Below are positions 1 to 27,084 of a stretch of 64,000 nucleotides of DNA, one piece after another; the first letter of the stretch is position 1, and each line of letters starts with the position of its first letter. This stretch comes from Bugula neritina (lineage: Eukaryota > Animalia > Bryozoa). The position numbers and the translations under genes are program-made. The notes beneath the pieces are model-generated. The model saw only the letters and a list, made by a program, of their open reading frames with translations, searched no databases and was not told the DNA's origin. The stretch is from the NCBI GenBank assembly GCA_964035545.1, contig OZ037769.1, positions 13,298,633 through 13,362,632 on the forward strand, given 5' to 3'.

Positions 1-134
1 TTTACAACTCCACAGCAAGGATAATCCGTCAAACTACTACTAGGTATTCTATCGATTGGAAATACACCGATGAAGTTCATCTTTTTCACCCACTCATCGT
101 TCTCAAGAATGGAATATATTTCTTTAGAATTCAT
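1..134 (-). CDS. Adenain-like cysteine (maturation) protease, N-terminal part only
   Basis: Manual translation from ATG at 134: MNSKEIYSILENDEWVKKMNFIGVFPIDRIPSSSLTDYPCCGVV; FxGVFPxDxxP resembles the Polinton/adenovirus protease N-terminus; ATG overlaps the capsid stop (TGATG); not in the ORF track. Confidence 0.75.
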   Translation of the reverse strand, partial: MNSKEIYSILENDEWVKKMNFIGVFPIDRIPSSSLTDYPCCGVV

Positions 135-1444
135 CACGCGTAGAAATTTGTAAGTACCGCTCTATTCTTATCAATTTTTATACCAGAGTCAAATTCGGAG
201 TAGACAATCACATTAACGGGTGTGTCAAGAGCCTGAGAAAACTTTAGCTCTAATCTTATTGTTCCTCGCTTCATCAAATGAAAGCAAGTGCTCAAATCTA
301 GGTCAGGAGTTAAATCAAAGGCCATTAGACTGTAACCTTTCTCGTATTCCTCTCTATCTATATCTATTCCGCCATTGTTGAACACCTTTCCCGTTGATTC
401 CAAGAGCGTAAAATAGTTTCTTAGAGTATTATGATTTGTGTAGTCTGAAACCAATGCCTTCTGAGGTACTTGTTTCCCGTCAACGACTAGGTTTGTATAT
501 TTTAAATGTTTGTGCTGAAAGTTGAAAGGATTCAAATTGTACGCGCCTTCGAATGCACCAGCGTTTACAATACCTATAACTATCCTCTTAGGCAGAATAC
601 CGTGAAATAAATTTTCTTCGTTCCAAGACAGTGAACCCAATGCGATATTGAATGACTTCATATCAACTCTTCTGATAGGATAAACGGCTGGTAATAGTTT
701 CTTGTCTAAATTTTCAATGTGCTTTAATTGTATTCCGCTATTGATTTTAACTTTTCGAAGGAAAAAAGATGCGTTTAGGATTTTTAGTTTGCAAGTAGAG
801 TTTTCACCAGCCATTAGCACTAAGCTGTTGTGATTCCTCACAAATTTTAATTTCATGTCTACTCCGTTTAAAATGAATCGCCTTTGAAAGAATATGTCAG
901 CGTGCGGTCTAACAATTAATTGCACAGTTTTACTCTGCCCCGTAATTCGCCTTCTAGCTTCCAAGCCTTCATTATCACCACCAATGTGATCCATTTTTCC
1001 GGGTGTATCCTTTGAGTAGAGTGACATTGATAGTTGTGACTTTTTAGCTTCATCGGAGTAACTTAGTAAAGTTTCTATAAGAGCTCTGTAGTGGTAGAGA
1101 TTAGAAGCGTTGGAAATAACTACATCATTTAGCATAATTTCTACTTGTTGAAATAATGTGTGACCCAAAAGGTTTATAGGAGCCGCATCACCTTGAGCAT
1201 CGAGATCCGTACCGTCAGCTTTTGTTATTTTCACCTCTAATAATAGATAGCTTGAACTGAGGTCAAGGTAGTTGTTCGAATCACCAGAGATTGAGAACTT
1301 TATAGGTCCCTCATCATTCAATGAGGTTGTGGGCATATGTTCTACGTGATATCCTTCTTCGATTGATGCTTGAGTAGGTAGTGTAGAAAATAAATCTAAT
1401 TCGGGTTTGCCAGCGAGGCAGCTATGTTCCATTATGAAACTCAT
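134..1444 (-). CDS. Polinton major capsid protein (double jelly-roll, hexon-like)
   Basis: 436 aa; ELDLFSTLPTQASIEEG N-terminus, LPKRIVIG..YNLNPFNFQH, AFDLTPD and GTIRLELKF motifs typical of Polinton MCP. Confidence 0.9.
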   Translation of the reverse strand: MSFIMEHSCLAGKPELDLFSTLPTQASIEEGYHVEHMPTTSLNDEGPIKFSISGDSNNYLDLSSSYLLLEVKITKADGTDLDAQGDAAPINLLGHTLFQQVEIMLNDVVISNASNLYHYRALIETLLSYSDEAKKSQLSMSLYSKDTPGKMDHIGGDNEGLEARRRITGQSKTVQLIVRPHADIFFQRRFILNGVDMKLKFVRNHNSLVLMAGENSTCKLKILNASFFLRKVKINSGIQLKHIENLDKKLLPAVYPIRRVDMKSFNIALGSLSWNEENLFHGILPKRIVIGIVNAGAFEGAYNLNPFNFQHKHLKYTNLVVDGKQVPQKALVSDYTNHNTLRNYFTLLESTGKVFNNGGIDIDREEYEKGYSLMAFDLTPDLDLSTCFHLMKRGTIRLELKFSQALDTPVNVIVYSEFDSGIKIDKNRAVLTNFYA

Positions 1445-1455
1445 AGTATAGTATT

Positions 1456-1887
1456 CTATGAAAAGATATCACGTTTAGTAACCCTACGTCTTTTCACCTT
1501 TGAAGACTTGGAAGAAGTAACTCTGTTAGTCTGACGCTTCCTTTTTTTATTTCGATTTCTGTTGGTGACGTATGTAATACCTTTAGTAATAACCTCTCCA
1601 GCCGCGCTGTTGACGTTATCTTTAATTGACTCTCTGAATGGTTTACCGGATAAACTATCTCTGGCAATGTTTAGACCAGTATTTATTGCTGTCTTTCCTA
1701 AACTTTTTACACCTTGTTTTACAACAGGCAATGCTGCTTTGAGTATGTTACCAAATATGCTCCCTAAACCGTATCCTGTTTGATATTTTTCTCCTGAAAA
1801 TATTGGAATCATTCCATTTCCTGATTGTTCATATAACTGTCTATAGCTATTTGATGCGGCATCACAATCGAATGGAATTATTCTCAT
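1456..1887 (-). CDS. Small basic virion core / membrane-lytic protein (adenovirus pVI-like)
   Basis: 143 aa; QxGxG candidate protease sites (QSGNG, QTGYG) followed by amphipathic GLGSIFGNILKAALPVVK; K/R-rich tail ending DIFS; lies between penton and MCP. Confidence 0.7.
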   Translation of the reverse strand: MRIIPFDCDAASNSYRQLYEQSGNGMIPIFSGEKYQTGYGLGSIFGNILKAALPVVKQGVKSLGKTAINTGLNIARDSLSGKPFRESIKDNVNSAAGEVITKGITYVTNRNRNKKRKRQTNRVTSSKSSKVKRRRVTKRDIFS

Positions 1888-2654
1888 ATTAGGTTTATAG
1901 GTTTAACTTTTCGAATATCTACCGTTACCACTGTACGTCCATGCGTGAATGGTACTCTTTCACCGTAATCCGTGTATATATAAATTGATACACTCGAAAC
2001 ATGCGTTTTATTTATTTTGCAGTACTGTACATTGTTAAAGTTAGTGGACTGCAACCTCCAATGACCATCCTCGACTCCTACAACTCTTAGTAGTTGAGCC
2101 TGAGTATCTCCAACAATACTAGATTCTGCTACATCTGTATACACCATCAGGTTAAATATTGTATGTAATCTTATTGGAGTATTGTACTTGACCAAAATTG
2201 TGCCATCGGTCATTGATTTTATCTCCATTTTTTCTTCCTGTACATTAAGTATTTTCTCAAGAGATGGTGAGTATGTGATGTCTATAGAGCAACCTCTAAC
2301 ATTTTCAGCAATGACATAAAAATTCTTATTGACATCGTTGTAATAGAAATTAAATTTTACTTTCAGATTTAAACACTGGTCATTTATTGCTTGATTGATA
2401 GATTGTATTAGCTTTTTATCTGATTTGTAGTAACCGTCATCTAGATGCACTGTTTCTTCAGCTTCATTTACTTTTAAGGTTATGCTGCACTGTTTCACAT
2501 TGAACCATGATTTATAAAATTGTATCTCACTCAATCCGATTTCGTAAGAGCCATCCGTAAAATCTAAACTTTGAGGCAATTGAACTGTGTATACTGAAAG
2601 ACTATTTTTTGGAAAATGCTTCAACGAAGCATTACTAGGTAAAACAACGCGCAT
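1884..2654 (-). CDS. Polinton minor capsid protein (penton)
   Basis: 256 aa; LPSNAS..FPKN..S.YTVQLP..L...YEIGLSEI N-terminus and VYTDV....IVGD..AQLLRVV motif. Confidence 0.85.
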   Translation of the reverse strand: MRVVLPSNASLKHFPKNSLSVYTVQLPQSLDFTDGSYEIGLSEIQFYKSWFNVKQCSITLKVNEAEETVHLDDGYYKSDKKLIQSINQAINDQCLNLKVKFNFYYNDVNKNFYVIAENVRGCSIDITYSPSLEKILNVQEEKMEIKSMTDGTILVKYNTPIRLHTIFNLMVYTDVAESSIVGDTQAQLLRVVGVEDGHWRLQSTNFNNVQYCKINKTHVSSVSIYIYTDYGERVPFTHGRTVVTVDIRKVKPINLI

Positions 2655-2687: not shown

Positions 2688-3815
2688 CTAATTCTTATAG
2701 TTAAAAATTACATCTCTTTTATCAACATACGAGTCAAAACTTGGCGGATATCCAGCCCACCTTACAAGAAATTGTTTTTTACCATTTACAGTACGCTGAC
2801 CAACAATTGACTCTATTTTATAGGTGTTGCTCTTGGTGTTTACTTTCTGTAATTCCGGTTCATACCATGTTCCTTCTAGCTGATCACCGCTGTCATCCGC
2901 GAGAGAATACACTGGAGGATTTGTAGTGTGGATTTTCGCTATGGTAAAGATTTCTTCGCTCCAAGAAGGAAGGTATCCTTTTTTAAATACTGTACTATAT
3001 TTCGATATTCTAACGAGATCTCCAACATTGTATTTTAGTTTGTTAGTTTGACCACTCTGACTATCTGTGTATAGTCTATGCCAAATTTCTTCTTGATTGT
3101 TAACTGTCACATCATTAGGTGTTGAGTTATGAGCCGAGTGTTTCGAGTTATTGTATGATGATATTAGATCATTGAGAATGTCAAGATATCTGTGACTGTT
3201 TTGATGAGTAAAATATTTAAACAATTTAGCCTTTAGTGTTCTTTGCAGTCTTTCAACCATGGATGCTTTAATTTCTTGATTGTTGGATGAAAAGTGGTTT
3301 ATGTTATATTCTTTCATTAATGCTTTAAATTGAGGGTTAAAGAATTCTTTGCCTCTATCTGATAAAATCATTTCTGGTGGAGTGTTGTTGTTTTCGTTTT
3401 CTATAATCTCCCTCATAGCTCTACTCACTTCTAAACCAGATTTAGTTTTGAGTGGTACACCGTAGGCTTTACGACTGAATGTGTCAATGCTTAATAGTAT
3501 ATACTTGAATCCATTATTTTCGGATGAAAACTGTTGGAGATCTGTTAAATCAATTTGCCACATGGCATTAATACCTGATACAATATACTTTCGTCTGGGA
3601 AAGTTTTTTCGCAAAGGTTTATGTAGGTTATAGCTGTCTGTTTTTTCAAGCCATATATCAATTGCACCCTTGCTTACTTTGCCTTTTAATGATTTGTATA
3701 ATTTTGCTTTACTACCAAATCCGGCTGGTTTAGAAATATTGAAATAGGTGTCTCGAATTAGTTTATCAGTATAACTGGAGTCTGGATTTTGCTTTTTTCG
3801 TTTTCGCCTTGCCAT
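2688..3815 (-). CDS. Retroviral-like (rve) DDE integrase with C-terminal chromodomain
   Basis: WQIDLTD / SDRGKEF / ASMVERLQRTLK give an intact D-D-E triad; YKIESIVGQR...FLVRWAGYPPSFDSYV chromodomain; probable ATG at 3815 (MARRKRKK), ORF track extends to 3923. Confidence 0.95.
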   Translation of the reverse strand: MARRKRKKQNPDSSYTDKLIRDTYFNISKPAGFGSKAKLYKSLKGKVSKGAIDIWLEKTDSYNLHKPLRKNFPRRKYIVSGINAMWQIDLTDLQQFSSENNGFKYILLSIDTFSRKAYGVPLKTKSGLEVSRAMREIIENENNNTPPEMILSDRGKEFFNPQFKALMKEYNINHFSSNNQEIKASMVERLQRTLKAKLFKYFTHQNSHRYLDILNDLISSYNNSKHSAHNSTPNDVTVNNQEEIWHRLYTDSQSGQTNKLKYNVGDLVRISKYSTVFKKGYLPSWSEEIFTIAKIHTTNPPVYSLADDSGDQLEGTWYEPELQKVNTKSNTYKIESIVGQRTVNGKKQFLVRWAGYPPSFDSYVDKRDVIFNYKN

Positions 3816-4491
3816 CGTATGGATCCCACTCGCCTGATGACAATTTACTAGACTCTCTTCTACTTTTAGATTTCTCTTCGATAACGTTTTGATTAATGAG
3901 TAGTTTGGGTACATTGTAATCAATTAATAGTTGTCTAAATTCTTTCCACCCTTCCAATGTTTTACCTTTCAGTTGACTATTAACCGCAAGATTTAATAGA
4001 TCAGATAAATTGCTTCCGCGTAGTTGGTTGCCGTTAATAGTTACCTGCCCCGCATCATTTACAGAAACTTTACCATCTTTTTTCAGTATATCCCAAAGTT
4101 GACTCGCCTTTGTTTTAAATCTTTGAGGGATAGCTAGTAATGGGTTATAAGATGTAAGACTTTCTGTTTCTTTTAGTTGTGGTTCACTATTCTTTGATAA
4201 AGTAGGCAACCTTGTGCTAGATATTTTCTTATAAGTAGTAGTTTTTAACTCTTGATAATTAGTCAACGCGTTGTTATAAACAGTTACTTTCTCATTTTCT
4301 GATAGCGTGTTGTCATTTAAGATTTCACTCATTAGCTTATCTACGGCAAATAGTTCTTTAGTAATCAAAGGTTTGTTTCTCTCGACTTGTTGATAATCAT
4401 TATTTTTGCTGACATCAGCATTTACAAATGAGTTGTGTTTTAGATCCGCGGCATCCACTAATAAGAATTTTCTAGCGCTTTGCGAATTCAT
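3766..4491 (-). CDS. Polinton conserved hypothetical protein
   Basis: 241 aa intact ORF with G.V.I.G..L.GSNLSDL...GWKEF..L...NVP motif that I recognise from animal Polintons; start overlaps the upstream stop (ATGA). Confidence 0.65.
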   Translation of the reverse strand: MNSQSARKFLLVDAADLKHNSFVNADVSKNNDYQQVERNKPLITKELFAVDKLMSEILNDNTLSENEKVTVYNNALTNYQELKTTTYKKISSTRLPTLSKNSEPQLKETESLTSYNPLLAIPQRFKTKASQLWDILKKDGKVSVNDAGQVTINGNQLRGSNLSDLLNLAVNSQLKGKTLEGWKEFRQLLIDYNVPKLLINQNVIEEKSKSRRESSKLSSGEWDPYDGKAKTKKAKSRLQLY

Positions 4492-4838
4492 CTTTTTCTA
4501 AAACCGCTGAATATTCCTTTCGCTAGTGGTGCTAGAACACTTCCTATTAGTGGTCCTAAAAGAGCCGAGAGAAACCCTCCTTTCTGTACCAGTGTTTTTT
4601 TAGTTTTCAGTGTACTCTTTTTATCAGCAATCTTTCTTAAAATATTTTTGTATTTACGTAAGTTGTTTTCTTCAGTAGGTGACAATGACACCTTGCCTTT
4701 TAATACGTTGTAGCAAATATCTGAGAAACAGTTCAACAGTTCACTACCCGCTGCGTTGATGATTGCTTTACAGTTGTGTTTGTCACATTCAGCTAAATAA
4801 CTTAGAGTCTTGGCGTGTTTTTTAATTCTAGCGGTCAT
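4488..4838 (-). CDS. Small core protein with adenovirus pX(mu)-like C-terminal peptide
   Basis: 116 aa; QKGG^FLSALLGPLIGSVL resembles the adenoviral pX GG^FLPALIP protease site plus hydrophobic peptide. Confidence 0.7.
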   Translation of the reverse strand: MTARIKKHAKTLSYLAECDKHNCKAIINAAGSELLNCFSDICYNVLKGKVSLSPTEENNLRKYKNILRKIADKKSTLKTKKTLVQKGGFLSALLGPLIGSVLAPLAKGIFSGFRKR

Positions 4839-4852
4839 GATTTATGTTAGCT

Positions 4853-5503
4853 TCAAGCTGCATTTCTTTGTAATGAAGTAGCGTTTCTGTTTGACAAATA
4901 GATATAGGTTTTCTCACCCGGAAATACACCTGTTCTAATGCGCAAATAGTCTTCTGTCTCTTGCCTGTAGTCTATAACCAAGTACCCAAAGGGGACAGAA
5001 GTGGCGTCTCGAAACGCTTCAACAACAAAATTACTCTGGTTTTTAGGAAACATTTGTCTTGCCAAATAGGATATCTGGTTCACGTCTCTAGGGTTTTTAA
5101 ATACAACAACATAAGAAGCGCTTCGAGACATTGTTCTCATGTGAGAGTTGTCTTGAAACAGATTCTGTGTTATAAATATTACGCTTATGTTGCGATGGTG
5201 ACTGTGCTTAGTAAATATGTTTTCAATATTCTGATCTATTTCACTCATTAAATCATCAAATATTATCAAGTTTTTTATATTTTTGTTTAATTCTTGTATA
5301 TCGATAACACCTTGATGAAACTCAACGTTGTTGTATGAACTAAACAGTGGCTGCCACTCACTATAACAATATATTATTTTTTCAGGTGGAGGTGATATCA
5401 TTGTATGACTGTTGGTAATCAATTTCCTTACCCACTGAGTTTTACCAGCCCTTGAAGGACCAGCTACAATCGCTGAAAATGTATGGTAGAAAGGTAAGCT
5501 CAT
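4853..5503 (-). CDS. A32/FtsK-HerA family genome-packaging ATPase
   Basis: Walker A GPSRAGKT, Walker B LIIFDD, HHRNISVIFITQ motif; probable start MSLPF at 5503 (ORF open to 5578). Confidence 0.93.
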   Translation of the reverse strand: MSLPFYHTFSAIVAGPSRAGKTQWVRKLITNSHTMISPPPEKIIYCYSEWQPLFSSYNNVEFHQGVIDIQELNKNIKNLIIFDDLMSEIDQNIENIFTKHSHHRNISVIFITQNLFQDNSHMRTMSRSASYVVVFKNPRDVNQISYLARQMFPKNQSNFVVEAFRDATSVPFGYLVIDYRQETEDYLRIRTGVFPGEKTYIYLSNRNATSLQRNAA

Positions 5504-5598
5504 GATGTTAACTGTATATTCCGAGAGTTTATTCCCAAATAATTGTATCAAGTAATGTACAAAAATATTAATAGGCATAAAAAAGTATAAATAGATTT

Positions 5599-5658
5599 AG
5601 GCAAGTTCAGGCATGTTTAGGCAAGTTCAGGCATGTTTAGGCATGTTTAGGCAAGTTT
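5599..5658. promoter_or_regulatory. Array of six abutting perfect p53-family half-sites (RRRCWWGYYY)
   Basis: AGGCAAGTTC AGGCATGTTT AGGCAAGTTC AGGCATGTTT AGGCATGTTT AGGCAAGTTT with zero spacer; TATA-like TATAAATA/TATTTATA at 5586-5593; 96 bp upstream of the ATPase ATG. Confidence 0.7.
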
Positions 5659-5690
5659 AGGCAAATATACACAATTATATACAAAATAAA

Positions 5691-6089
5691 CTATTGTACA
5701 TTGTTTTGTTTCTCGAGAGCTATTCCCAAGTTCCATTGGATCTGTTGAATAAAATATTTCACTGCGAAGTGTTCTCCAGCCTCGATATACATTTTGCAAA
5801 TTTGCACGCACAAGAAAAATATTGTTTCTAAGCGAATAGCTGAGATATTTGGATCAGTCAAATCTTTTGCCACTTTACAAAACTGAACGTAACCGTTAGT
5901 CTCGTACATATCCTCGGCTAGTTCGACCAATTCATTTATTTCTTCCTCACTCCAATTTTGATGTTTATTGTACATGTCCAAAACGGTTTGCGTTATACAA
6001 TAGTTAACGTAATGTTGTCTACTCATTTTCGAAAGCTTGTACCATATATAATTATAAGCGTTTTTCTGTAATAGGTATAAATTTTCCAT
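5691..6089 (-). CDS. Divergent viral Bcl-2-like protein
   Basis: 132 aa from ATG 6089; BH4-like YIWYKLSK (Bcl-2 YIHYKLSQ); BH1-region-like YVQFCKVAKDLTDPNISAIRLETIFFLCVQIC (Bcl-xL [32 protein letters not shown]); no BH2 or TM tail visible. Confidence 0.6.
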   Translation of the reverse strand: MENLYLLQKNAYNYIWYKLSKMSRQHYVNYCITQTVLDMYNKHQNWSEEEINELVELAEDMYETNGYVQFCKVAKDLTDPNISAIRLETIFFLCVQICKMYIEAGEHFAVKYFIQQIQWNLGIALEKQNNVQ

Positions 6090-6170
6090 CGTAGAATATT
6101 GATTGATGCGACCTATCAACCGAACAGTGAAATACCAATTAACTGAACGCGCTAACTGAACACAGTTTTT

Positions 6171-9100
6171 TTACAGTAAAGTAGGTTTGGTTGTCACGTG
6201 ATCTTGTGACACAATTCTCCTTCCGTAAAAATAATTTAAAGCTTTTCGATTTTGAACGTACGTGAATATTTCTTCACCTTTTACTCGAAAACCCTTGTTC
6301 GTACCGTAAGCAATTTTCTGATTTATCAATACATCGAAGTAATCTTTTTCGGTATAGTTGTTGTGCAATTTACTGACACCTTTTGAACTGTATTTAGGTT
6401 CTTCCCCGAAACAATAGTAACATTTGGAGCAAAGCGCTACAACACCTCGGGAGACATTTTCGCAGTGAAACAACCCCAAAGATCTTTTGTGGAACTTGGC
6501 ACTAGCTTTACAACAGTCTAATGGATTCCAGGTTTGCCCGTTAAACATACATTGAAAATATTGTGACTTGTGTTCATCGCAATATTCTCTACACATCCAA
6601 CTAGTGTGTTCTTGTTCAAATTCATTTCTCATATCACTTTTGACCGCTAGGTACAAAGTTTTTTCACTTAGAGCTAAATACATTGAGTCAGTGTCCATTT
6701 GAATCAAAGCAAAACTGTCTAGAGATAGAAACTTTAACAAGAAATCGTAATAGAATTTCAACATGGCTAGCTTTGCATACTCTAATACTTGAAAGCCAAT
6801 TTGTACTGGTACATTGAGTCTAATCTTAGCTTTTCGTGATTCAATTTCAACTAGTTGAGAATCAATTTCTTGTAAGCTGTTAAATCTAGGATTGTTTACC
6901 AGTCTTGAGATGTTTGTCTCTTCAGCATCACAATATATGATATCAGTGTGACTCTCCAGGTTGACTAGTGTTCGGCCATACGCAGAGTTTCCTGAAATAT
7001 AGCGAAGTGGATTATTTTGAAATATATTGAGTAATTATTCAATGCAAAAGTTATCGCTCTTGCTAGATGCTTAATTGATTTGCATATTAATAACCATTGA
7101 ATAAGTGTTATGTTTAAACATGTCAATATTTACTAAATACCTATTAGTTTGCATGAATCCGATATAATCTTCTTTGAGGAATCGAGGTCACCAGCTCTCC
7201 TAGCCTCCATTACCTTTTCACCAAACAGCTTGAAGCATTTTGATGGCTTGTATTGAATTACTTGATATACTTTTGTAACCACTAAGCCGTATTGTAGGTA
7301 CCATTGCAGTAGCGGGGTGGACAAAAGGATTTTGTTCCCGAAATAGCTACTGATTAAAGTACGTGATGGCTTTTTTAGTAAACCATTTCGTTCTGCAAAT
7401 TGTTTCATGTGTGGGCCTATGTCATCCCTTGATATCAGTACATTTTTTTGTATAGGTTGATATTCAGCAAATATTGTTTTCAAGTCTTCAGGTGTTTCTA
7501 TATCAACTTCAGCCATTCCAAACATTGAACCATTTTTGATTTCTTCTAGTATTTTGCTTTCTGATATTACGTATCTTGAATCAACAATGAAGTCCAGATT
7601 TGAGCAGAACTCACTGACATCACTGTTTTCCTTTTTCAAATTATCAAATTCACACTCCCAAGTATGGTAGACTCTGTAACCCAAATCTTGGAAATATTTC
7701 AGCGTATTGTATGTGTCTATTTGATTTTGTAAATCTTTTTTTTTGTTATTAAACTTTCCATTTGGACAATAGTCGCATAGATGTCCGTGAAACCAGCATC
7801 CTGAGTAGTTGAACACTAGTTCACTACCATCACTCGCCAGAGCGTATCCATCGACTGGTATGTTTCGTCCACCTATTCGACGTTCGGTGCTATTAAACTT
7901 GTGTTGAATTTTGACTCCGAGCAGCTTTGACATGTATTTTAGCCATACTGTAGCTTTTTCACCCGAATAGTAGCTTTTTTCTATTCTAAAGCTATTTTCT
8001 CTCCGCCTTCTTACAAAGGCTCCTGTGGGCATATCTTTCACTAGGCAACTCAAATATAAACTTGTTGCATCATACCCTACACATGTTTGTGTAGTTTTGG
8101 CTTGATCACCAAAGTATTCAGGTTTAATCTTTGTTGCGCCAGCTTCTTGATACCTTGAGAACACAATTGATAAACCACCTCTAATGTTTGATTTGATAAG
8201 TTGGTGAATGTCTTTAAACTTATCACCAAACAGAAAGATTGGCGCTTCTGGGTCTTTTAATTGAAATAAATATTGAATCGCTAGTCCTGGTATAGATATA
8301 GCTGACTTGAAATCAAGATTGCATGATTTGTAAAATTCATTTTGCTTTTCTAATGCTGGTATAAAGTGTCTGACATCTTCGTTATTGTAGTACTCTAGTA
8401 AGTCTTTTAATGTTTTCATTCCTTTCTGTACCCATATTTCTTTGCATTTTTCATACTCCTGAACGGATATGTTTTTACCTTTCAGTTTACTGTAAAACTC
8501 TTCATGAGCGGGGAACTCTGTTCTGTCTAGCACTTCCATAGATGTGAATATGTCATAAGGCCAGAAGAATTTTTCCCCTTCAACTCCCATAGCTTTTAGA
8601 TAATCAGAGTACGAAAACCCTGGAGCAAGGAAATTGAGCACGTCTAGAAATCTTAATTTTTCCGTTTGAATACACATGTATTTGTTTCCTTTTTTAGCTG
8701 TAAACAAAACTTTTTGGTTTTGTTCTAATAGATACCGTAGCATATGTTGTCGAATCAATGGAATGTCATAGACAGCGCCGTTGAAAGACAAGACCATCAA
8801 GTCTTTCAAATAACAGTGGAGTTGACTTTCTAGTGATTCAAACTTTTTTTTGACATTGTTCACTGCTTTGTTATTACAACTAGCTTCAATTTCTTTCTTG
8901 ATACACTCGTCAGCTTTTTCACGTAGTTGTTGAAACACATCATTGTATCTAACAAGCAATCTCTGGTAGCATACTTCAGACAGCTTTGTAAGGAAATCCA
9001 TCATTTTCACAACCAGCTCGTATTCGTTTCCAGAATTCATGAAATTCACTGGTTGTGTATAGCCAGATACGTTTGAGCATAAACTTATACAAGCCAACTT

Positions 9101-10708
9101 GTGTTTGTTTTCATAGTGTATTGTATTTGTGTTTGCAGGTAAATCAATCGAAGACATCATCGTTTCGCAATCAAACACAGCAAAGTACGGATAATGTCGT
9201 CTATTTTCATCAACTGTGATGTGAACATCTTCAAGCTTTTCGAAAATAGATCGAGACGGAGTATACACCCCGTAGGGATACACAAGGTTTGTTTCACCAG
9301 CTGTACATACTGTGTTATGACTATTCAACGCTCTGACTGATTTCATTAGCTTGTTACAAAATGTACATTTGTATGACTTTGTGTAAAGAGAGATGTTTTT
9401 TATCCAACTGAAATGTGATTCCTCTAGATGTAAGTTTAGTTTGTGTTTGTAATTGGTAGTGGCTCTGTACATAAGCTTTGCATTAGCTTCTTTCCCTGTA
9501 TTGTATTCCAAGGTGTACACATTAATAGAACAGTTCAGTATTCGCTCGGCAAATCTGAGGTCTGATAAAGGCACTCCTGTAAAATCTTGATTCAGTTTGT
9601 TCATACCATTCAAGTACATTTCATAATAATGTTTCGTAGACTGTGTTAAAGTACTCTGCTGCCCCTTTGAGTAAGCTAGAGCTCTAAATAGACATAAGTT
9701 GTCTTCATACAGTCTTCCAGTTGTATCAGTGCTAGCTGTTATAATTGCTTTGTTTTGTTTTGTTCTCTCAGATGGAGATATAGGGCATCCGATATTGTGA
9801 TCTGGTATAGGAAATACATACAATGTAATATTTGTTATTTTGTGAACACTCCACGAAGTGTTTGGCCTGTTTTGAGTTGCTTTCTCTATGAAATCTTTTT
9901 CTGTCATTTCTTTCACAAGTTGATTGAAATCTTGTAAATTCTCTATTAGCTTTGGCGAGGCAAAAAGTTTATCAACACCCATGCTAGCATGAAAGTATCT
10001 CAACTTTTCCTCATTTTGATTCAAAAGGATAAAACCAATTGAAGCATTGCATTTGAATTTCAATGTTTGTTCATGAAATATTAATTTCACTTCTTTATTG
10101 TTTAAAGTTGAAATAATGTCATTGTCTTTTATCAATCGATTGTAGACACTACAATATTTCCCTTTTCTGTTGTACGTTCTTATAGCTGACCAGTTTTTTC
10201 TCAATAGAGCATTTGTTTCCTCTTCGTAAATGCCTTTGTACTGATAGCGTTCAATATCATCACTGAATGTGGTTTGAGGCTTTTTGTTTGACCTTCTCTC
10301 TGCTCCGTTTGAGTTTGTATTCTAAAATTTACCAAGATTACCATTGATTAGTTAGCTTTGAATTTGTTGTGATAGTATATGTAGTATGATCATATTCATA
10401 TCGTATCGTATCACTCAGTAGATAAATTACCGTGTTATGACATCGGTGATTTGTTTTCCACGGTGCATACAACCGTTTACATTGATCACATCTTTTTTTG
10501 TGGATACTTTGGTGCCTGCTCAAACTTTGCCTGTGGTTATAACTTTTTCCACATATGTGGCACTTGAATTTCTCTAAAACAATTGAAGTATAAATTATTC
10601 TTTTAACCACCTTGATAGAGATGCAAGGATCAAAGAAAATTACTTCAAATAGAGATATTGTTTAATAATATGTAAATAGATACACTCATAAATGTATATA
10701 CTTGACAT
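6171..10708 (-). CDS. Protein-primed DNA polymerase B, spliced (~1383 aa): exons 10708-10702 (tentative), 10573-10431, 10321-7141, 6991-6171
   Basis: Exo I FDCET, Exo II FNGAVYD, motif A YDATSLY, motif B KLIG|NSAYG restored across a GT-AG intron 7140-6992, motif C MDTDS and KCY; N-terminal C2H2 finger exon joins in phase 0 via GT-AG intron 10430-10322; OTU-like DNLCLFRAL..SHF. Confidence 0.9.
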
Positions 10709-10784
10709 ATAGTGGCATTATCAGATAGAATTGTCAGGTTTACTACACTCTTCATCAGAGCCAGAAGAACAGTGTTTTAAACTT

Positions 10785-12030
10785 TTTCATCGAGTATATA
10801 TTAAGATATATTGAAATAGATTGAAATAGATTGAAGTATATAGATACCCTATTGTATATTAACAACTCGCTTTTATACATTTTGTGTTTAATAGTGGCAG
10901 AGATAGTATTGAATTTCTTTTCATCGAGTATATATTGAGATAGATTGAAGTATATAGATATTGTATATTAACAACTCGCTTTTATACATTTTGTGTTTAA
11001 TAGTGGCAGAGATAGTATTGAATTTCTTTTCATCGAGTATATATTGAGATAGATTGAAGTATATAGATATTGTATATTAACAACTCGCTTTTATACATTT
11101 TGTGTTTAATAGTGGCAGAGATAGTATTGAATTTCTTTTCAACGAGTATATATTGAGATAGATTGTAATATATAGATGTTGTATATTAACAACTCGCTTT
11201 TATACATTTTGGGTTTAATAGTGGCAGAGATAGTATTGAATTTCTTTTCAACGAGTATATATTGAGATAGATTGAAGTATATAGATATTGTATATTAACA
11301 ACTCGCTTTTATACATTTTGTGTTTAATAGTGGCAGAGATAGTATTGAATTTCTTTTCATCGAGTATATATTGAGATAGATTGTAATATATAGATGTTGT
11401 ATATTAACAACTCGCTTGTATACATTTTGGGTTTAATAGTGGCAGAGATAGTATTGAATTCCTTTTCATCGAGTATATAGGTATTGAGATAGATTGAAGT
11501 ATATAGATATTGTATATTAACAACTCGCTTGTATACATTTTGGGTTTAATAGTGGCAGAGATAGTATTGAATTTCTTTTTATTGAGTATATATTGAGATA
11601 GATTGTAATATATAGATGTTGTATATTAACAACTCGCTTTTATACATTCAATAGTAGCAGTGCTAGTATTGAATTTCTTTTCATTGAGTATATATTGAGA
11701 TAGATTGTAATATATAGATGTTGTATATTAACAACTCGCTTTTATACATTCAATAGTCGCAGTGCTAGTATTGAATTTCTTTTCATTGAGTATATATTGA
11801 GATAGATTGTAATATATAGATGTTGTATATTAACAACTCGCTTTTATACATTTTGTGTTTAATAGTGGCAGAGATAGTATTGAATTTTTTTCATTGAGTA
11901 TATATTGAGATAGATTGTAATATATAGATGTTGTGTATTAACAACTCGCTTTTATACATTTTGTGTTTAATAGTGGCAGAGATAGTATTGAATTTCTTTT
12001 CACTGATTATATATTGAGATATATTGTAAC
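10785..12030. repeat. Tandem array, ~11 copies of a ~109-bp unit, upstream of pPolB
   Basis: AACAACTCGC recurs at 10861, 10970, 11079, 11188, 11297, 11406, ~11519, 11628, 11730, 11832, 11940; units near-identical; most carry TATAAAAG on the minus strand. Confidence 0.95.
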
Positions 12031-12139
12031 AATATTTTAAACAATAATACGCATAAAAGTATTCCATTCACCAACATAAAATATTTCCCCATCACCAAAA
12101 AATACAACATATTTATATTAGAGAGTCAGTGTCAGTCCG

Positions 12140-13452
12140 TCAGCCTAAAAATTTTATGATCGGCTCCGATCGTTTAAAATAATTATATTCATCCGGTGAT
12201 ATGTCGTCTAGTTTGATTTCGGTCACATTTAGTGACCAAAATAAGTCCTCGTTTACTTTTTTTATCACACCGCTTCTCAACACGCATGTTAATTTTCCCA
12301 CTTTTCCATACAGTTGTTGTACATTTAATAACACAGGTTGTCCATTGACTACAGCATTTACGCAAATTTCGTCTTCCATGTTTCTGACCACGTCAACATA
12401 ACATCCGAGCAATGATGCATTTTCACTTTTACCGTAAAACTTGACTTTTTTTTCAAAAATTTTAGCTAGCTTTGTTTTAAAAAGTTCTAGATTTTTAGAT
12501 TTTTTCACATATAAACATGGCCCACTGTTGGGAATTTTCGACTCGTATATTTTTAATTCACCTATAAATTCATCGGATTTAAAAAAGAATTTACGCGAAT
12601 GATTAAATGTAGGTATTATCTTGTCATTGTCAGTGTAATAGGATAATTGTGATTGATCATAATTAAGAGGGACTAGATAGCAACCTTCTTCATTTGCAGG
12701 TGTTTTGCTCTGATCGACAGCGGTAGCAGCAGTGGCAGCATCATCACTTGTAGTAACAGTTGTACCAGTAGAGGAACTAGCGGATGGAATAGACGATGTC
12801 ATAGAGGAAGGAGTGGTAGTAGCGCTAAAAAAGAGGGATCTATTACTATGTTTTATAATATGTAACTTATTCTACGTAATATAATTTATTACATGACAAA
12901 CGTCTGTTTATTTGTTTATAGTTTGTCAAGTGAATACAATTAATTGTGAGTCTTACAGATGATTGATGATTTACGATATTCTACTAACCTCACGCTGGTA
13001 GATACAGATGGCTCGCTAGTCGACTCATCCACCTTTGGAATTGATGCAGGTTTCTTACGCTTTGATTCACCAGACTTAGATTCACTAAAATAATATTATT
13101 GTAATGAATAAAATGCTACTTTTAGCTGATAAAAAAGGTTAGCATAATTATAGAAAGCTAACACTATAGTAAACTAAAATCATTCTCGTGTTAATAATAT
13201 TCTAACAGGTTAGTGGTTAGCATAGTTATAGAAAGCTAACACTATAGTAAACTAAAATCATTCTCATGTTAATAATATTCTAACAGGTTAGTGGTGAGAT
13301 ATCCAAAAGAAATATATTATTACTTACTTTTTTCTTTTAGAAGGCTTTAAGGCTTTGAGTGGTTCAACTGTACTGGAACTAGTACTCGTTTCTCCCACTT
13401 TTCTTCTGAGTTGTAGTAGTTCAGCTTCTAACTTCTTTACTAAATCTCCCAT
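12140..13452 (-). CDS. Three-exon Polinton gene (301 aa), probable OB-fold ssDNA-binding protein with NLS and Ser/Thr linker; exons 13452-13328, 13084-12989, 12824-12140
   Basis: ACCATGG start, phase-consistent GT-AG introns (GTAAGT, GTTAGT donors; TTTTAG acceptors), total 906 nt in frame with ORF 12140-12802; SSB call is inference from the beta-rich C-terminal domain and position next to pPolB. Confidence 0.7.
13137..13295. repeat. 78-bp direct tandem duplication in intron 1 of the putative SSB gene
   Basis: GGTTAGCATA(A/G)TTATAGAAAGCTAACACTATAG... starts at 13137 and 13215. Confidence 0.9.
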
Positions 13453-13503
13453 GGTGTTTGCTGTATGGTTTGAGATGCGATGAAACATAGAAGTTTTTCG
13501 AGG

Positions 13504-13513
13504 CTTTTATATA
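13504..13513 (-). promoter_or_regulatory. TATA box of the putative SSB gene
   Basis: TATATAAAAG on the minus strand ~55 nt upstream of the ACCATGG start. Confidence 0.6.
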
Positions 13514-14148
13514 CTGAGATTTTGTAATTTATTCCTACGTAAATGAAATTTATCTTAACTAAAAGTTTTCCTTTTTTTATTATAGGGAGTTGGGTGGTAA
13601 CATTTTAATTGTAATCTGCCGGTTTAAGGTTTACTCACGTAAGCAATATTATATCAGTTTACGTAGGTGATACGTGTTTTATCAGTTGCATATGTATTTA
13701 AACTTCAACTAGGACACTTCCCATCCGTAAATTAGAAATTGCCGTGTCATCCATCTTAGCTGAAAAATTTTCCGATTTTTAACTATAATGAGGAATTGAG
13801 TTGTTAAATTTTAAATACAATCCACCCATCTAGGGTTTAATTACTGGGCGATATTATATCAGTTTACGTAGGTTATACAAGATTTTATTATGTTTTACTT
13901 CCCATTGATTAAATTGGAAACCGCTGTGTCACCTCCTAATTTTTGCTAATATTAATTTTTACTTTGTCAAAGTTTCAGACATCATTAGCATAAGGTTAAT
14001 TATCTTTTTTCTGCTTTTTGAGTTTCAGAAAAATTGTGTCAAGTTATAAGTTTAAAAATGGAGTTGCAAATAGAGTTGGACCATAAGACATGTTTTTTGT
14101 TTCCATTTAACATTTTATTATAAACTATGAGTTGTATACAGAAAAACA

Positions 14149-14664
14149 TTACATTCCGTAATAATTATTTTCTAAAATGTGTTTAGTCAAAACTGTTAAC
14201 AGCTTAGATGGTGAAGACGCATCACTCTGAGACATATTACCATTCAAGAAAAAATATTGTATAGTTATAAAATCCCCGTGAACTTTAGTGTTGCAAACAG
14301 CTAGTTTTAAATTGTCAGTCATTTCGAAGTGTTTTGTGCAGTTATTGAACATTCTGTCTAAAGTATAATTAGTTGAAAACATCTTTCCAGAAAAGCTACC
14401 ATTACCGCTCATAACTATGTTGATTACATTCATTGATAAAAATAGTGCTACCAGGATAATAGCGATAGGTTTCTTTTTTAGTTCTGAAAAGCTCCAGTCA
14501 TTCTTTGCATTATCTCTCCTGGTCGAAACTTTATTAATGAGTGTATTCCGATTATGTACAACTTTTCTCGCCACATCTAACTCGTCTTCAGCCACATTTG
14601 CATCTTGTTCATTAAATATAGGATCTTTATTTTGCAAGGGAGAATTTTCTACTTCTGTCATCAT
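14149..14664 (-). CDS. Polinton accessory single-pass membrane protein
   Basis: 171 aa; KKKP then hydrophobic IAIILVALFLSMNVINIVM; NxS/T sequons (NGS, NYT, NCT, NMS) after the TM; TATAAAA at ~14726-14732 and AATAAA at ~14114-14119 on the minus strand. Confidence 0.7.
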   Translation of the reverse strand: MMTEVENSPLQNKDPIFNEQDANVAEDELDVARKVVHNRNTLINKVSTRRDNAKNDWSFSELKKKPIAIILVALFLSMNVINIVMSGNGSFSGKMFSTNYTLDRMFNNCTKHFEMTDNLKLAVCNTKVHGDFITIQYFFLNGNMSQSDASSPSKLLTVLTKHILENNYYGM

Positions 14665-14941
14665 TGATTAACCTTTGCGCTCAAAACATATAACGATGAA
14701 TGATGTAAATTTCAGAATGGTGATGTTTTATACCAAAAAACACACAAATTTTGACTCGCAAACTGTATAACTCTCAGCCCAGTGAGTAAATTTTGTTACT
14801 TATAAAGTTAGTGACAAGGATATACAGCTAAACTAATCATTGATCCACCTTCCAGTAATTGCTTAAAAGGTGTATTCACTGTAAGCTAAATTTAATAGCT
14901 ACCACCTGTCAACTTTAAGGCTTACAATGCTCACATAGTTA

Positions 14942-15044
14942 ACGAGATGCTAATTTCCATAGCCATAGAGTCTACGCTATGTTGACAAATTGGCCGATAC
15001 GAGATGCTTACTTCCATAGCCGTAGAGGCGCTTATTATACTACT
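14942..15044 (-). repeat. Outer part of the presumed terminal inverted repeat with two 29-bp subterminal direct repeats
   Basis: ACGAGATGCTAATTTCCATAGCCATAGAG (14942-14970) and ACGAGATGCTTACTTCCATAGCCGTAGAG (14999-15027); terminal ACTACT; partner TIR outside the window. Confidence 0.65.
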
Positions 15045-17685
15045 GACCTTCAAATGATCATCAGCAGAAACAAAGAAATACCTTTCATCTGACTGTCTTG
15101 AGGAGGTAGCCCAAGTGATGGTTGTGCCTTGCTATCTATCAACAGAAATTTATAGAACTATCCAAAATTAATTGACACAGACTTTATCATAAAAGCAATA
15201 AACTAAATAAACATATAAAAGAGTAAGTTAGCTGAAAAATACAGACTTCAAACTAAAACCACACTTTTTATTTTAACAATTGAAATAATCAGGAAAATAA
15301 GAAACAGGTAATTTGAGTTTTATGTGAACACTGTTATGAAGTAGCAAAGTGTTCAAGAAAACATAATATGTTGAGAATCAGACTCTGTAACCACATTCAC
15401 TAGTTATTAAAAGATACATGAAATTTAAGGATCAGACACCTAAAGACATGTTTATTTTATGCACCAATTCTTTTGCCGCACATTTTAGAGTGAACAAATG
15501 CAACAAGTTATAGAATAACTGCAAATATTCCACTAGTTGAAAATCTACTATAACAACTTAAAGAGGTTCTATATAAACATACTTCCACTAAAGATTTCAA
15601 ACTTATTAGAAATTTTCAGTTCAAAGTTTGTTACCTTTTTCAATCAACAAAAAATGTGTGAATTTTAAATCAATTGAAAAAGAGTTTAATAATTTTAAAC
15701 TGGGAGGGTTCTATTTTTTCAAAGTAGTAAAAAATCTTTTATTAAACATTTTGATTTTCATATTTGTTCAACTAAGCCATGTACATACTTTCATAATTTG
15801 AGATACTATTCACATAATAAGTACACAACTCGCTTAGATCTTCTATTTTTAGAATTATATATTATTATATATTATACTCAGTAGTGATAAATAGCGCATT
15901 CACTCCCAAAGCAAGGCACTATAAATCGAAAATAATGGAAAATTTTTTCAAAACCAGGAGAGAAAAAAACCTTCAGCATGCTGTAAATATATATATAAGC
16001 TGATAGACAAAAAGAAACTAATATGGGCGCATATATTGTTTATGCACTCATTTATGTGAAAACTGAGAATTGTGTACTTATAGTCATTGCAAAAGTTCTT
16101 TTTAGTTTTTTATAAGGAAATAATATACCTTTGTGCACCATGTACTCGTCAAAACCCAGGTCTTTATTAACTTTGTTATAAATAAGTTGCCTCAATTGCT
16201 GAGGAAGCATGGCTAACCTCTACAAAATATAGAGCAAACTATCCAATACACAACAGTATGAAAGCTATGAAGGAAACGTAATTTGTAAATACAGAAAACT
16301 AGCAAAGAAACACAGAGCACAAATAGAAACAACCTGATTTTCTTGAATTGTCTTCTCTTCCTTACAGAAGTATTATGTGGGAAATTTATACATTGTATTT
16401 TGTGTGGTTTAAGCACAAATGCAACAGTTACAAAAAAGCTTAAAACCTTGAACCTTACCGTGAAATATATGGTAGCGAGGTTACAGATCATCACATATAT
16501 TTATTGTTATTTACATACAAATGAGCTAAAACTCTTGCTAAACACAGCTTGAATCAACCCTAGTATCTGAAAATTGTTAAAAGAAAATTGAGCGTCGAAA
16601 AGCTGCAGAAGATGCAACATCTGCTGAGTGATTGAAGACTGGCACTTGGACTACAGCCGGAAGTGCTTCAAATCTTATAAATGGTCTACTAAAACTATAC
16701 CACATAATTTTTAAAATGCCAAGGCAGCCACAAAACTTGAAAGATGAAAAAAAACTACAGCAGAATATCTTTACTAAGTGTACATGGTAAAACTTTTGCT
16801 TAAGCTAAAATCCTTCTCAGTTGAATAACTATCAAAAAAATTTACTTTGAGTACCATGGTAATTTCGGTGTTGTCAACCAAACCAACATACTCTAAAATA
16901 CCAAAACCAAAAGACTTTTATAAAACTTGACAACGCTACCACACCTTTAGTTACCGGACCAATTGCGTCCAAATAATTGTCACTTCAGCGTCTGAACTGG
17001 AGTTCAAGTGTAGGAAAGCCCATGGTTCTTAGTGTACTGCGACATAATGCAAAGAATTGGGCCGCTTTTTGGTCTAAAAGTCAAATTCGTGTGCAGCTCA
17101 CATTAGGTGTAAACCTGAAAAAATAAAATGACCAACCAGTTTGAAGATTACTAGCCCAGGGCTGTCGTCATATATATTAAAGTTTTTCTGCCTACATCTG
17201 ACTTGAAATTTAAACACTTCATTTTTCCACTCTTGTTTTATGAAGTTCTCCAGAAAGGGATGCAAGCACACTGGTGATGAGAAAGGCATAGCTTTGGTTC
17301 AAAGATGCTATCAAATTTGATATAAAACTCAGAAAAAGATTTTCAACATTCAAGTTGAACCTACTATCTAAACTATTCTGGCCTACAGGCTGGAGACTAA
17401 AACTGGTCATTGTGATTGTGATTGCCATGGAACTATCAGAAATTTAGAAAGATTAGGATGTTGAAGTAAAGACACTATATAATTAAATCATAAATGTTGA
17501 ACAGCCTTGGGATTATCACTTGTGATTCAGATAGCTGAAAGATGCATGCCATCTACTCTAGTACTAGTAGTCACAGTCTCAGTAGAGATAGTACTACGTA
17601 TTATATTTATTAGTATTAGTATAAGTATTACTAATTTAGTTATGAATAATAATTAAAACTAGCAGTAGTACTGCTATTTGTCTGC

Positions 17686-25835: not shown

Positions 25836-27084
25836 ATGGCGGCCCCCTGTATTGCCAAAACATTTTTTCAAGCTGGTACGAATCCTAACCGGTTTCTACT
25901 GCGTCGCTTTTGTGCTACAGCTGAGGGTGTAGTAAAAACTGATCTAAATGTCAAGCCAGTTAAAGAGCCTATAATTACACGTATAGGTAAGACTCGGTCA
26001 CTGAAATCCTTGAACTAATGTCACATTGAGTTTGACTTTGTCATTGTCATTGTGATTGGCATTAAATTTGATATCATTATCATGATCATCAGATTATGAT
26101 AGTACGATTGAATGTTTATATTATCATAATTATTATTAACATTCAATTTTATTTCATATTCATACTGATTTTTGATTTCATCCTCATGTGCCAACGAAGT
26201 GTATTATAATTATTTTGTCAACTTACCTGTGTTCTGTTAATTTAAATTTATCCATGCTGCAATGCAGTGTGCCAACATGAACATGGCCGTAAAAGATTTG
26301 AATTGATGACTATAAGAATTTCATACAGGGCTTCCAACTCCTTAAGTTATTTTATTGCAGCCATGTTACTGCCATTGTATGACAAAATTGTGTATCTGAA
26401 TCATCTGTACAATAGAATAGAGTGTGTAGCATAAACTCATTAATTTTAAACAAAGTTGGAGTTTAAATGTTTTTGAACGGCTAGCTGTCACTATACTGCA
26501 AGCATTGTGCTTTATTATTATTTTACAATTAACCAAGCTGAAAGAATTGATTTTTGTTTTTAGTAAATCATTTCAAGCGGTTGGTAGAGGACTATAAAAA
26601 TGCTGTCATTGAAACTGGAAGTGTAATTAAAGAAAAGCCTATTCGTGTAGCTTTATACAGTGCATTGACAGCATCAGCTGGATATTTGTATGCACACAAT
26701 CCTTCTATGGCCAACTATGAAGGACATTTAGCCATGATTACCTGCGATCAGGCTGAGGTAGGCAATACTATAAGAAACACAGAAAAATGCCAGCAAATAC
26801 AGTCAATACTTGAGCATCATTGTCATGGCAGGTTAAGACGCTTTACATTTGGTTTATTTTCTGTGATATGGGTTAGCGAGTATCCCAAATATATAGACTT
26901 GTATGAGGCACAGTGCAAGGATGTGCAGATGACCTGGAGAGAGTGGCCTAAACATATAGTAGACATTGGTATATTAGATCATTGGAGATGGACTGAACAA
27001 TACATGGTAGATTTTGATATTAACCCTTTAGAGTGGGACCATTCTTCTGCTAGCAATTCTAAAGATGAAACAGTTGAAAAATAG
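25836..27084 (+). CDS. TIMM29: Mitochondrial import inner membrane translocase subunit Tim29 (exons 25836-25986, 26564-27084)
   Basis: Presequence-like exon 1; LVEDY, IRN, GRLRRFTFGLFSVIW, LYEAQC, IVDIGILDHW and DFDIN..EW match the TIMM29 pattern; phase-1 GT-AG intron. Confidence 0.9.

Follow-up and report, generated by a model that had tools for sequence, protein, structure and literature searches.

The gene of the protein-primed DNA polymerase (pPolB) of a Polinton/Maverick element of Bugula neritina contains a real spliceosomal intron (6992..7140, minus strand; 149 nt, U2-type GT-AG, phase 1) that interrupts the Gly codon of polymerase motif B (KLxG/NSAYG, the slash marking the joint). All positions are those of the window, i.e., the whole stretch of 64,000 nucleotides analysed (contig OZ037769.1, 13,298,633 to 13,362,632). 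A probability of about 70% was assigned to the reading that this is a real spliceosomal intron, removed in probable RNA, likely old and constitutive and without a role as a switch.

The donor (GTATTT) lies at 7140 and the acceptor (TTTCAG) runs down to 6992 on the minus strand; the Gly codon is interrupted after base 1. The long pPolB open reading frame terminates with CKLIGI and a stop at 7133, and beyond the intron an open frame extends from NSAYG (6989) past MDTDS (6695) as far as the stop at 6171. The intron was AT-rich in its interior (GC content 0.26 vs 0.39 in the exon), which together with the GT donor and the YAG acceptor agrees with a U2-type intron; the branch point consensus YTRAY was missing from its last 60 nt and was found in 6 of 9 related loci. 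Among 98 GT-AG pairs of 40–300 nt in 6901–7250, only 2 restored K...N..YG. The alternative pair (donor 7221, 230 nt) also yields K...N..YG, but would delete 27 conserved codons and was rejected. Rfam search of 5500–16000 for a self-splicing intron of group I or II gave no match at E ≤ 1, and none of the repeat families of at least 30 nt among those shown, looked for as a sign of introner origin, overlaps the intron in the window. Coordinates, ends and frame were those claimed in the preliminary description, and exactly the same joint was present in probable RNA. The length of 1023 aa given there for the open reading frame stands only as a count starting, in our reading, at a TTG codon; the frame measures 949 aa from the first ATG and 1062 aa from stop to stop.

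Eight of the 23 listed sequencing runs were compared with the window: six of probable RNA (X7–X12), one of probable DNA (X6) and one of unknown kind (X1). These RNA/DNA labels are guesses; X7 is RNA-Seq by its library text and X6 is from the same sample as X7. The data were assembled contigs without tissue labels, from which retention is not measurable. The junction 7141/6991, proposed earlier as a check, was present exactly in 2 of the 6 probable RNA runs, from two separate studies: X9 – joint skipping 149 bases with CT..AC ends, exactly 7140/6992 (2 contigs, depth 5.6); X7 – identical 149-base joint with CT..AC ends (1 contig, depth 13.3). The joint-bearing contigs had 37 letters on the shorter side of the joint. 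The probable RNA runs X10 and X11 covered the intron with no joint; X8 and X12 were without coverage of the donor, so that a missing joint there is uninformative. No joint was observed in the case of X6 and X1, in both of which single contigs span the intron (6680–7326 and 6741–7700, respectively). Intron-containing contigs were obtained from X7, X8 and X11, and X10 had depth over the intron; the depth over the intron in X7 was about 11–17 vs 13.3 at the joint, which could indicate substantial retention, or DNA, or pre-mRNA.

The X6 contig differed from the window at 7 positions in the 149-nt intron vs 3 in 498 exon nt (10 in all; Fisher P = 0.002); two of the three exon differences were synonymous and one nonsynonymous, and GT and AG were untouched by any listed X6 difference. 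Over four runs, 16 of the 29 listed exon differences were synonymous, in a set that includes frameshifted copies. The region 7978–10684 in the probable RNA runs X9–X12 was dominated by a frameshifted sister copy, which also lacks 9667–9707. One X7 contig matches the exon and the donor GT at 7139 and continues with 121 different AT-rich letters; it possibly belongs to a sister family in which this site holds an intron of different sequence. At 6500–7700, X1 reached a depth of about 1100 and almost all of its contigs were 99% alike, which may reflect many near-identical copies.

Conservation of the intron position, the other check proposed earlier, was looked for in relatives. Search gave 75 related proteins, the 22 closest at 52–74% identity; the nearest named relative was a protein of the bryozoan Watersipora subatra (61% identical). 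Fifteen of these 22 proteins end 0–37 residues after KLxG and 7 read on; the cluster members listed end likewise just after the motif-B Gly, and among the remaining 53 proteins, which are more distant, not one ends there. The intron state of the 15 truncated proteins was taken from the ORF end, i.e., judged from protein and not from DNA; P0003, P0007, P0016 and P0019 are known as proteins only. Related metagenome loci (26) were classified as follows: GT-AG intron at the identical base – 9; read-through – 12; uninformative – 5 (L022–L026, which do not show motif B and were left out of the counts). A single accession series accounts for most of these loci, near-copies included; the distinct types number about six with the intron and, among close read-through loci, two. 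The nine related introns (68, 69, 170, 170, 173, 174, 191, 222 and 222 nt) are of the same phase; canonical GT-AG ends at the identical base were found in 10 of 10 cases seen in DNA, the window included. Interiors were unalignable between lineages, except for L013–L016, L019/L020 and near-copies. Extra GT-AG introns were found elsewhere in pPolB (L012, 3709–4260; L017, 4395–4565; L020, 4775–4935, also in L019), and the motif-B site is therefore not unique; two extra introns of L012 are also of phase 1 in Gly codons. The motif-B intron is dispensable, since L001–L010 read through motif B in DNA and all 7 of those tested keep the signals of the 5' introns (below). Scanning of viral contigs with the last pPolB exon gave no match.

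For the history of the intron, a tree was calculated from the 380 residues before the motif-B Gly (35 rows, LG+G4, 5 of 19 outgroup rows). A clade of 30 rows (support 100/100) contained 22 rows with the intron, 7 read-through rows and one NCBI model with unseen exon structure. Changes of intron state numbered 4 in all, 3 of them forced inside the clade vs a mean of 6.4 after shuffling, and the read-through rows were nested among the intron rows. Grouping of the intron-bearing rows as a single clade was rejected (p-AU 2e-36). The tree with its intron-free outgroup is compatible with a single gain followed by as many as three losses; the change counts alone cannot separate gain from loss, and only the loss in L001–L010 is visible in DNA. 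We infer that the intron was gained once, in the ancestor of this marine-invertebrate Polinton clade, at the G/G site of the Gly codon, that its interior drifted beyond recognition, and that it was cleanly lost in up to three lineages.

The preliminary description had further suggested that splicing acts as a switch that sets the ratio of primer to polymerase or restricts replication to particular tissues. Under such regulated retention, host or element would control splicing, and the retained form would be a terminal protein–vOTU–exonuclease product without motif C, supplying primer or repressing replication, e.g., outside the germline. The preliminary statement on the product itself was correct: retention would lead to a stop one codon into the intron, with loss of half of motif B and of motif C. 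The contigs agree with regulation in part, spliced and intron-containing forms both occurring in probable RNA (at comparable depth in the case of X7), and X10 and X11 covering the intron without a joint; however, the intron-containing contigs may stem from DNA or pre-mRNA. The early stop gave a mixed signal. It is reached after 0–3 intron codons in 6 of 7 lineages seen in DNA (mean over the 7: 2.1 vs 10.0 codons in shuffles, P = 0.0045, the lineages being not independent), but it was not significant in the 15 truncated proteins (P = 0.42) or over all 22 rows (P = 0.10); the shuffles keep 6 donor bases, the 8-base version being circular and not used. The position is kept across the clade, and one site kept across 52–74% protein identity could reflect function, but the introns share no internal sequence, and the intron was lost in L001–L010, the polymerase frames of which are long and open. 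The truncated product, moreover, would still comprise about 1060 of the 1333 residues encoded from 10321 on (ca. 80% of the protein) and would be a poor route to a primer; Cys and His patterns of a vOTU domain are present in it, and this domain was proposed, in the part of the source available, to cut the terminal protein free (10.1101/2024.03.18.585575). The suggested switch is therefore not borne out, and we regard regulated retention as unlikely. Slightly less credence is given to its widest form, in which a conserved intron in the polymerase active site, under host control, serves a clade of animal Polintons as a switch for replication: splicing would yield the full enzyme, and retention a product that bears the primer but lacks catalytic activity and either builds up a stock of terminal protein or prevents replication in the wrong tissue.

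Shared position could also arise without shared ancestry, if the G/G site in the motif-B Gly codon were a hot spot that attracted introns repeatedly and independently. Interiors unrelated between lineages and different lengths point in this direction, as do the two extra phase-1 introns in Gly codons of L012; unrelated interiors are, however, expected at such divergence, and the identical base in all 10 cases seen in DNA, the clustering of the state on the tree with nested read-through rows, and the complete absence (0 of 53) of ends at this Gly among the more distant proteins argue against it. Repeated gain was accordingly judged improbable, a little more so than the replication switch. Far below all of these in probability stands the reading that there is no intron, that an insertion of 149 nt killed the gene and that the RNA joints come from an intron-less sister copy. 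Frameshifted sister copies are indeed present and prevail in parts of the probable RNA runs, and read-through relatives are known; but the joint was absent from X6 and X1, canonical ends were found in 10 of 10 cases seen in DNA despite different interiors, and both flanking frames are open and conserved. This reading is largely refuted, and the earlier claim of a spliceosomal intron in a polymerase that is no pseudogene was supported by splicing in probable RNA and by the conserved position in related elements.

The long pPolB exon (7141..10321, minus strand) is an open frame with a predicted terminal-protein and vOTU region, Exo I–III, motif A, a Vsr-like insert and the first half of motif B; the last exon (6171..6991, minus strand) carries NSAYG, motif C (DTDS 6695), the C-terminal domain and the stop, and is 51% identical to residues 1048–1320 of P0016. 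Motifs Exo I–III and Pol A–C were found across the two exons, and the vOTU Cys and His patterns at 9703 and 9415, all with patterns of our own. Pfam search of the window ORFs gave no polymerase match; relatives at 43–44% identity match DNA_pol_B_2 above the cut-off. The Vsr match was obtained in PDB with the relative P0016 (E 0.003), and the same pattern is present in the window at 7801; PDB search with the pPolB ORF of the window itself gave no match, Vsr included.

The first 113 residues of the long ORF contain no Met, and yet homology to P0016 starts at about 10261; the true start of pPolB is likely in upstream exons. Judged from sequence, pPolB likely has two further introns flanking a zinc-finger exon located upstream, from which the missing N-terminus would come: a likely second intron (10322..10430, minus strand; 109 nt, phase 0, GTAATT...TTTTAG), which joins the zinc-finger exon in frame; a likely C2H2 zinc-finger exon (10431..10573, minus strand; Pfam zf-C2H2, E 4e-5, narrowly missing the curated cut-off); and, within 10574..10708 on the minus strand, a candidate third intron (10701–10574) with a start exon of 7 nt (10708–10702), the acceptor being conserved and the donor and ATG placed by eye. 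The phase-1 acceptor 3–5 codons before the first zinc-finger Cys and the phase-0 donor 2–5 codons past HxC of the zinc finger were each found in 14 of 14 rows (window and 13 loci); the in-frame acceptor into the polymerase frame was found in 11 of the 14 by a strict filter and in the other 3 (window, L019, L020) by a relaxed filter, one each. The RefSeq model of Watersipora subatra (P0076) has an N-terminus that aligns to the zinc finger and is fused to the polymerase. No zinc finger was matched in L012 (4 kb upstream present) or in L006, L007, L009, L011 and L016 (most with short upstream DNA). Joints of the second and third introns were absent from X9–X12, and an X9 contig (9856–10380) runs into the candidate second intron.

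The Polinton/Maverick occupies bases 1 to about 15000 with all genes on the minus strand and continues beyond the left end of the window. Besides pPolB, it contains, all on the minus strand, an uninterrupted packaging ATPase (4853..5578; Pfam Adeno_IVa2 above the cut-off), which follows pPolB in related loci; two conserved ORFs (3766..4838; 241 and 116 aa) between the ATPase and the integrase; an uninterrupted retroviral-type integrase with a chromodomain (2688..3914; Pfam rve, E 2e-14, and Chromo); an ORF of 256 aa (1884..2654; no Pfam match), for which a minor capsid protein is guessed from the position; and a likely major capsid protein of the double jelly-roll type (134..1444; Atlas feature score 0.98 to clusters with PF21738 DJR-like on 14–30% of members), for which neither Pfam nor PDB sequence search gave a match. 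The order pPolB, ATPase, two small ORFs, integrase was the same in related loci. Upstream of pPolB, repeat finding gave a tandem array of a 109-nt unit (10852..12029; about 11 copies, no strand assigned); a 10-nt array is located at 5596–5664, upstream of the ATPase. A candidate element end was recognized in the sequence at 15005..15044 (minus strand); it begins with AGTAGTA, the AGTAGT at 15044 being what we take to be the Polinton type of terminus, and the partner end would fall to the left of the window. A possible accessory gene of three exons lies at 12140–13450, with splice sites placed by eye at about 13327 and 12990 (donors) and about 13085 and 12824 (acceptors); L012 contains a weak match to its last ORF. 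The flank carries a Tim29-like host gene as one long ORF (26551–27084).

Under the preferred reading of an ordinary intron, the element would be transcribed in the host nucleus, and the host U2 spliceosome would remove the motif-B intron and likely also the two 5' introns. The mRNA would encode a single chain (zinc finger – terminal protein – vOTU – exonuclease – polymerase), from which the vOTU domain may free the terminal protein, as proposed for Polintons in the available part of 10.1101/2024.03.18.585575; unspliced RNA would meet the stop one codon into the intron and would likely be waste or pre-mRNA. An old, ordinary intron that ties pPolB production to host splicing is the best reading of these data.

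Core genes of Polintons are taken to be free of introns, and surveys rely on prokaryotic or ORF gene callers, as described in the parts available of PMC10120064, PMC8097293 and 10.1101/2023.08.22.554363. A clade of apparently intact elements is recorded as truncated, since the database sequences of 15 of the 22 closest proteins stop at the motif-B site. The earlier expectation that ORF-based surveys would mis-call the gene held in part: it would fail the rule of "intronless ORFs" (PMC8097293), but the ORF of 949 aa would pass the 900-aa filter of 10.1101/2023.08.22.554363, as a truncated protein, both rules being quoted from the available parts of these sources. Old introns and clean losses show a long dependence on nuclear transcription and host splicing; clean loss in an element replicating as DNA would likely require a cDNA step. 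Presence or loss of the intron is a marker for tracing transfer between hosts, and the junction of the two exons allows the place and time of Polinton polymerase production to be tested directly in RNA.

Retention of the third intron of the Drosophila P element, the tissue-specific regulation of which is established, gives a truncated enzyme. The present intron is similar in that retention would truncate the enzyme of a mobile element, and differs in that such regulation is established there and not here and in that close relatives here lack the intron. Literature search (titles and abstract starts) gave no report of a spliceosomal intron in an animal Polinton polymerase; survey supplements may contain spliced models. 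The available parts of PMC8502044, PMC11244446, 10.64898/2026.10.13.758929 and 10.64898/2026.07.28.741278 contained nothing on such introns. Polintons/Mavericks of vertebrates and nematodes (eupolintoviruses, formerly adintoviruses) share with the present element pPolB, the rve integrase, the packaging ATPase and likely the double jelly-roll capsid gene in one element. Their core genes, in contrast to pPolB described here with one shown and two likely introns, are described in the available text as intronless: intact vertebrate elements are without introns (PMC8097293), and introns are found in cargo genes only (10.1101/2022.07.12.499685). In PMC10120064, endogenous viruses are assumed to be free of introns. 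Polintons with a Vsr-type pPolB2, described from molluscs and a marine nematode (10.1101/2023.08.22.554363), have a similar Vsr-like insert between motifs A and B; that survey was ORF-based, and its text, as far as available, is without mention of a spliceosomal intron. Group I introns are described in PLVs (PMC12220804, available part). Spliceosomal introns within Polinton-like elements are known from the introner-carrying eupolintoviral elements of dinoflagellates (PMC12166617, available part); those are copies of introner transposons, mostly young and in protists, whereas the intron described here is conserved in position, diverged in sequence and located in an animal element.
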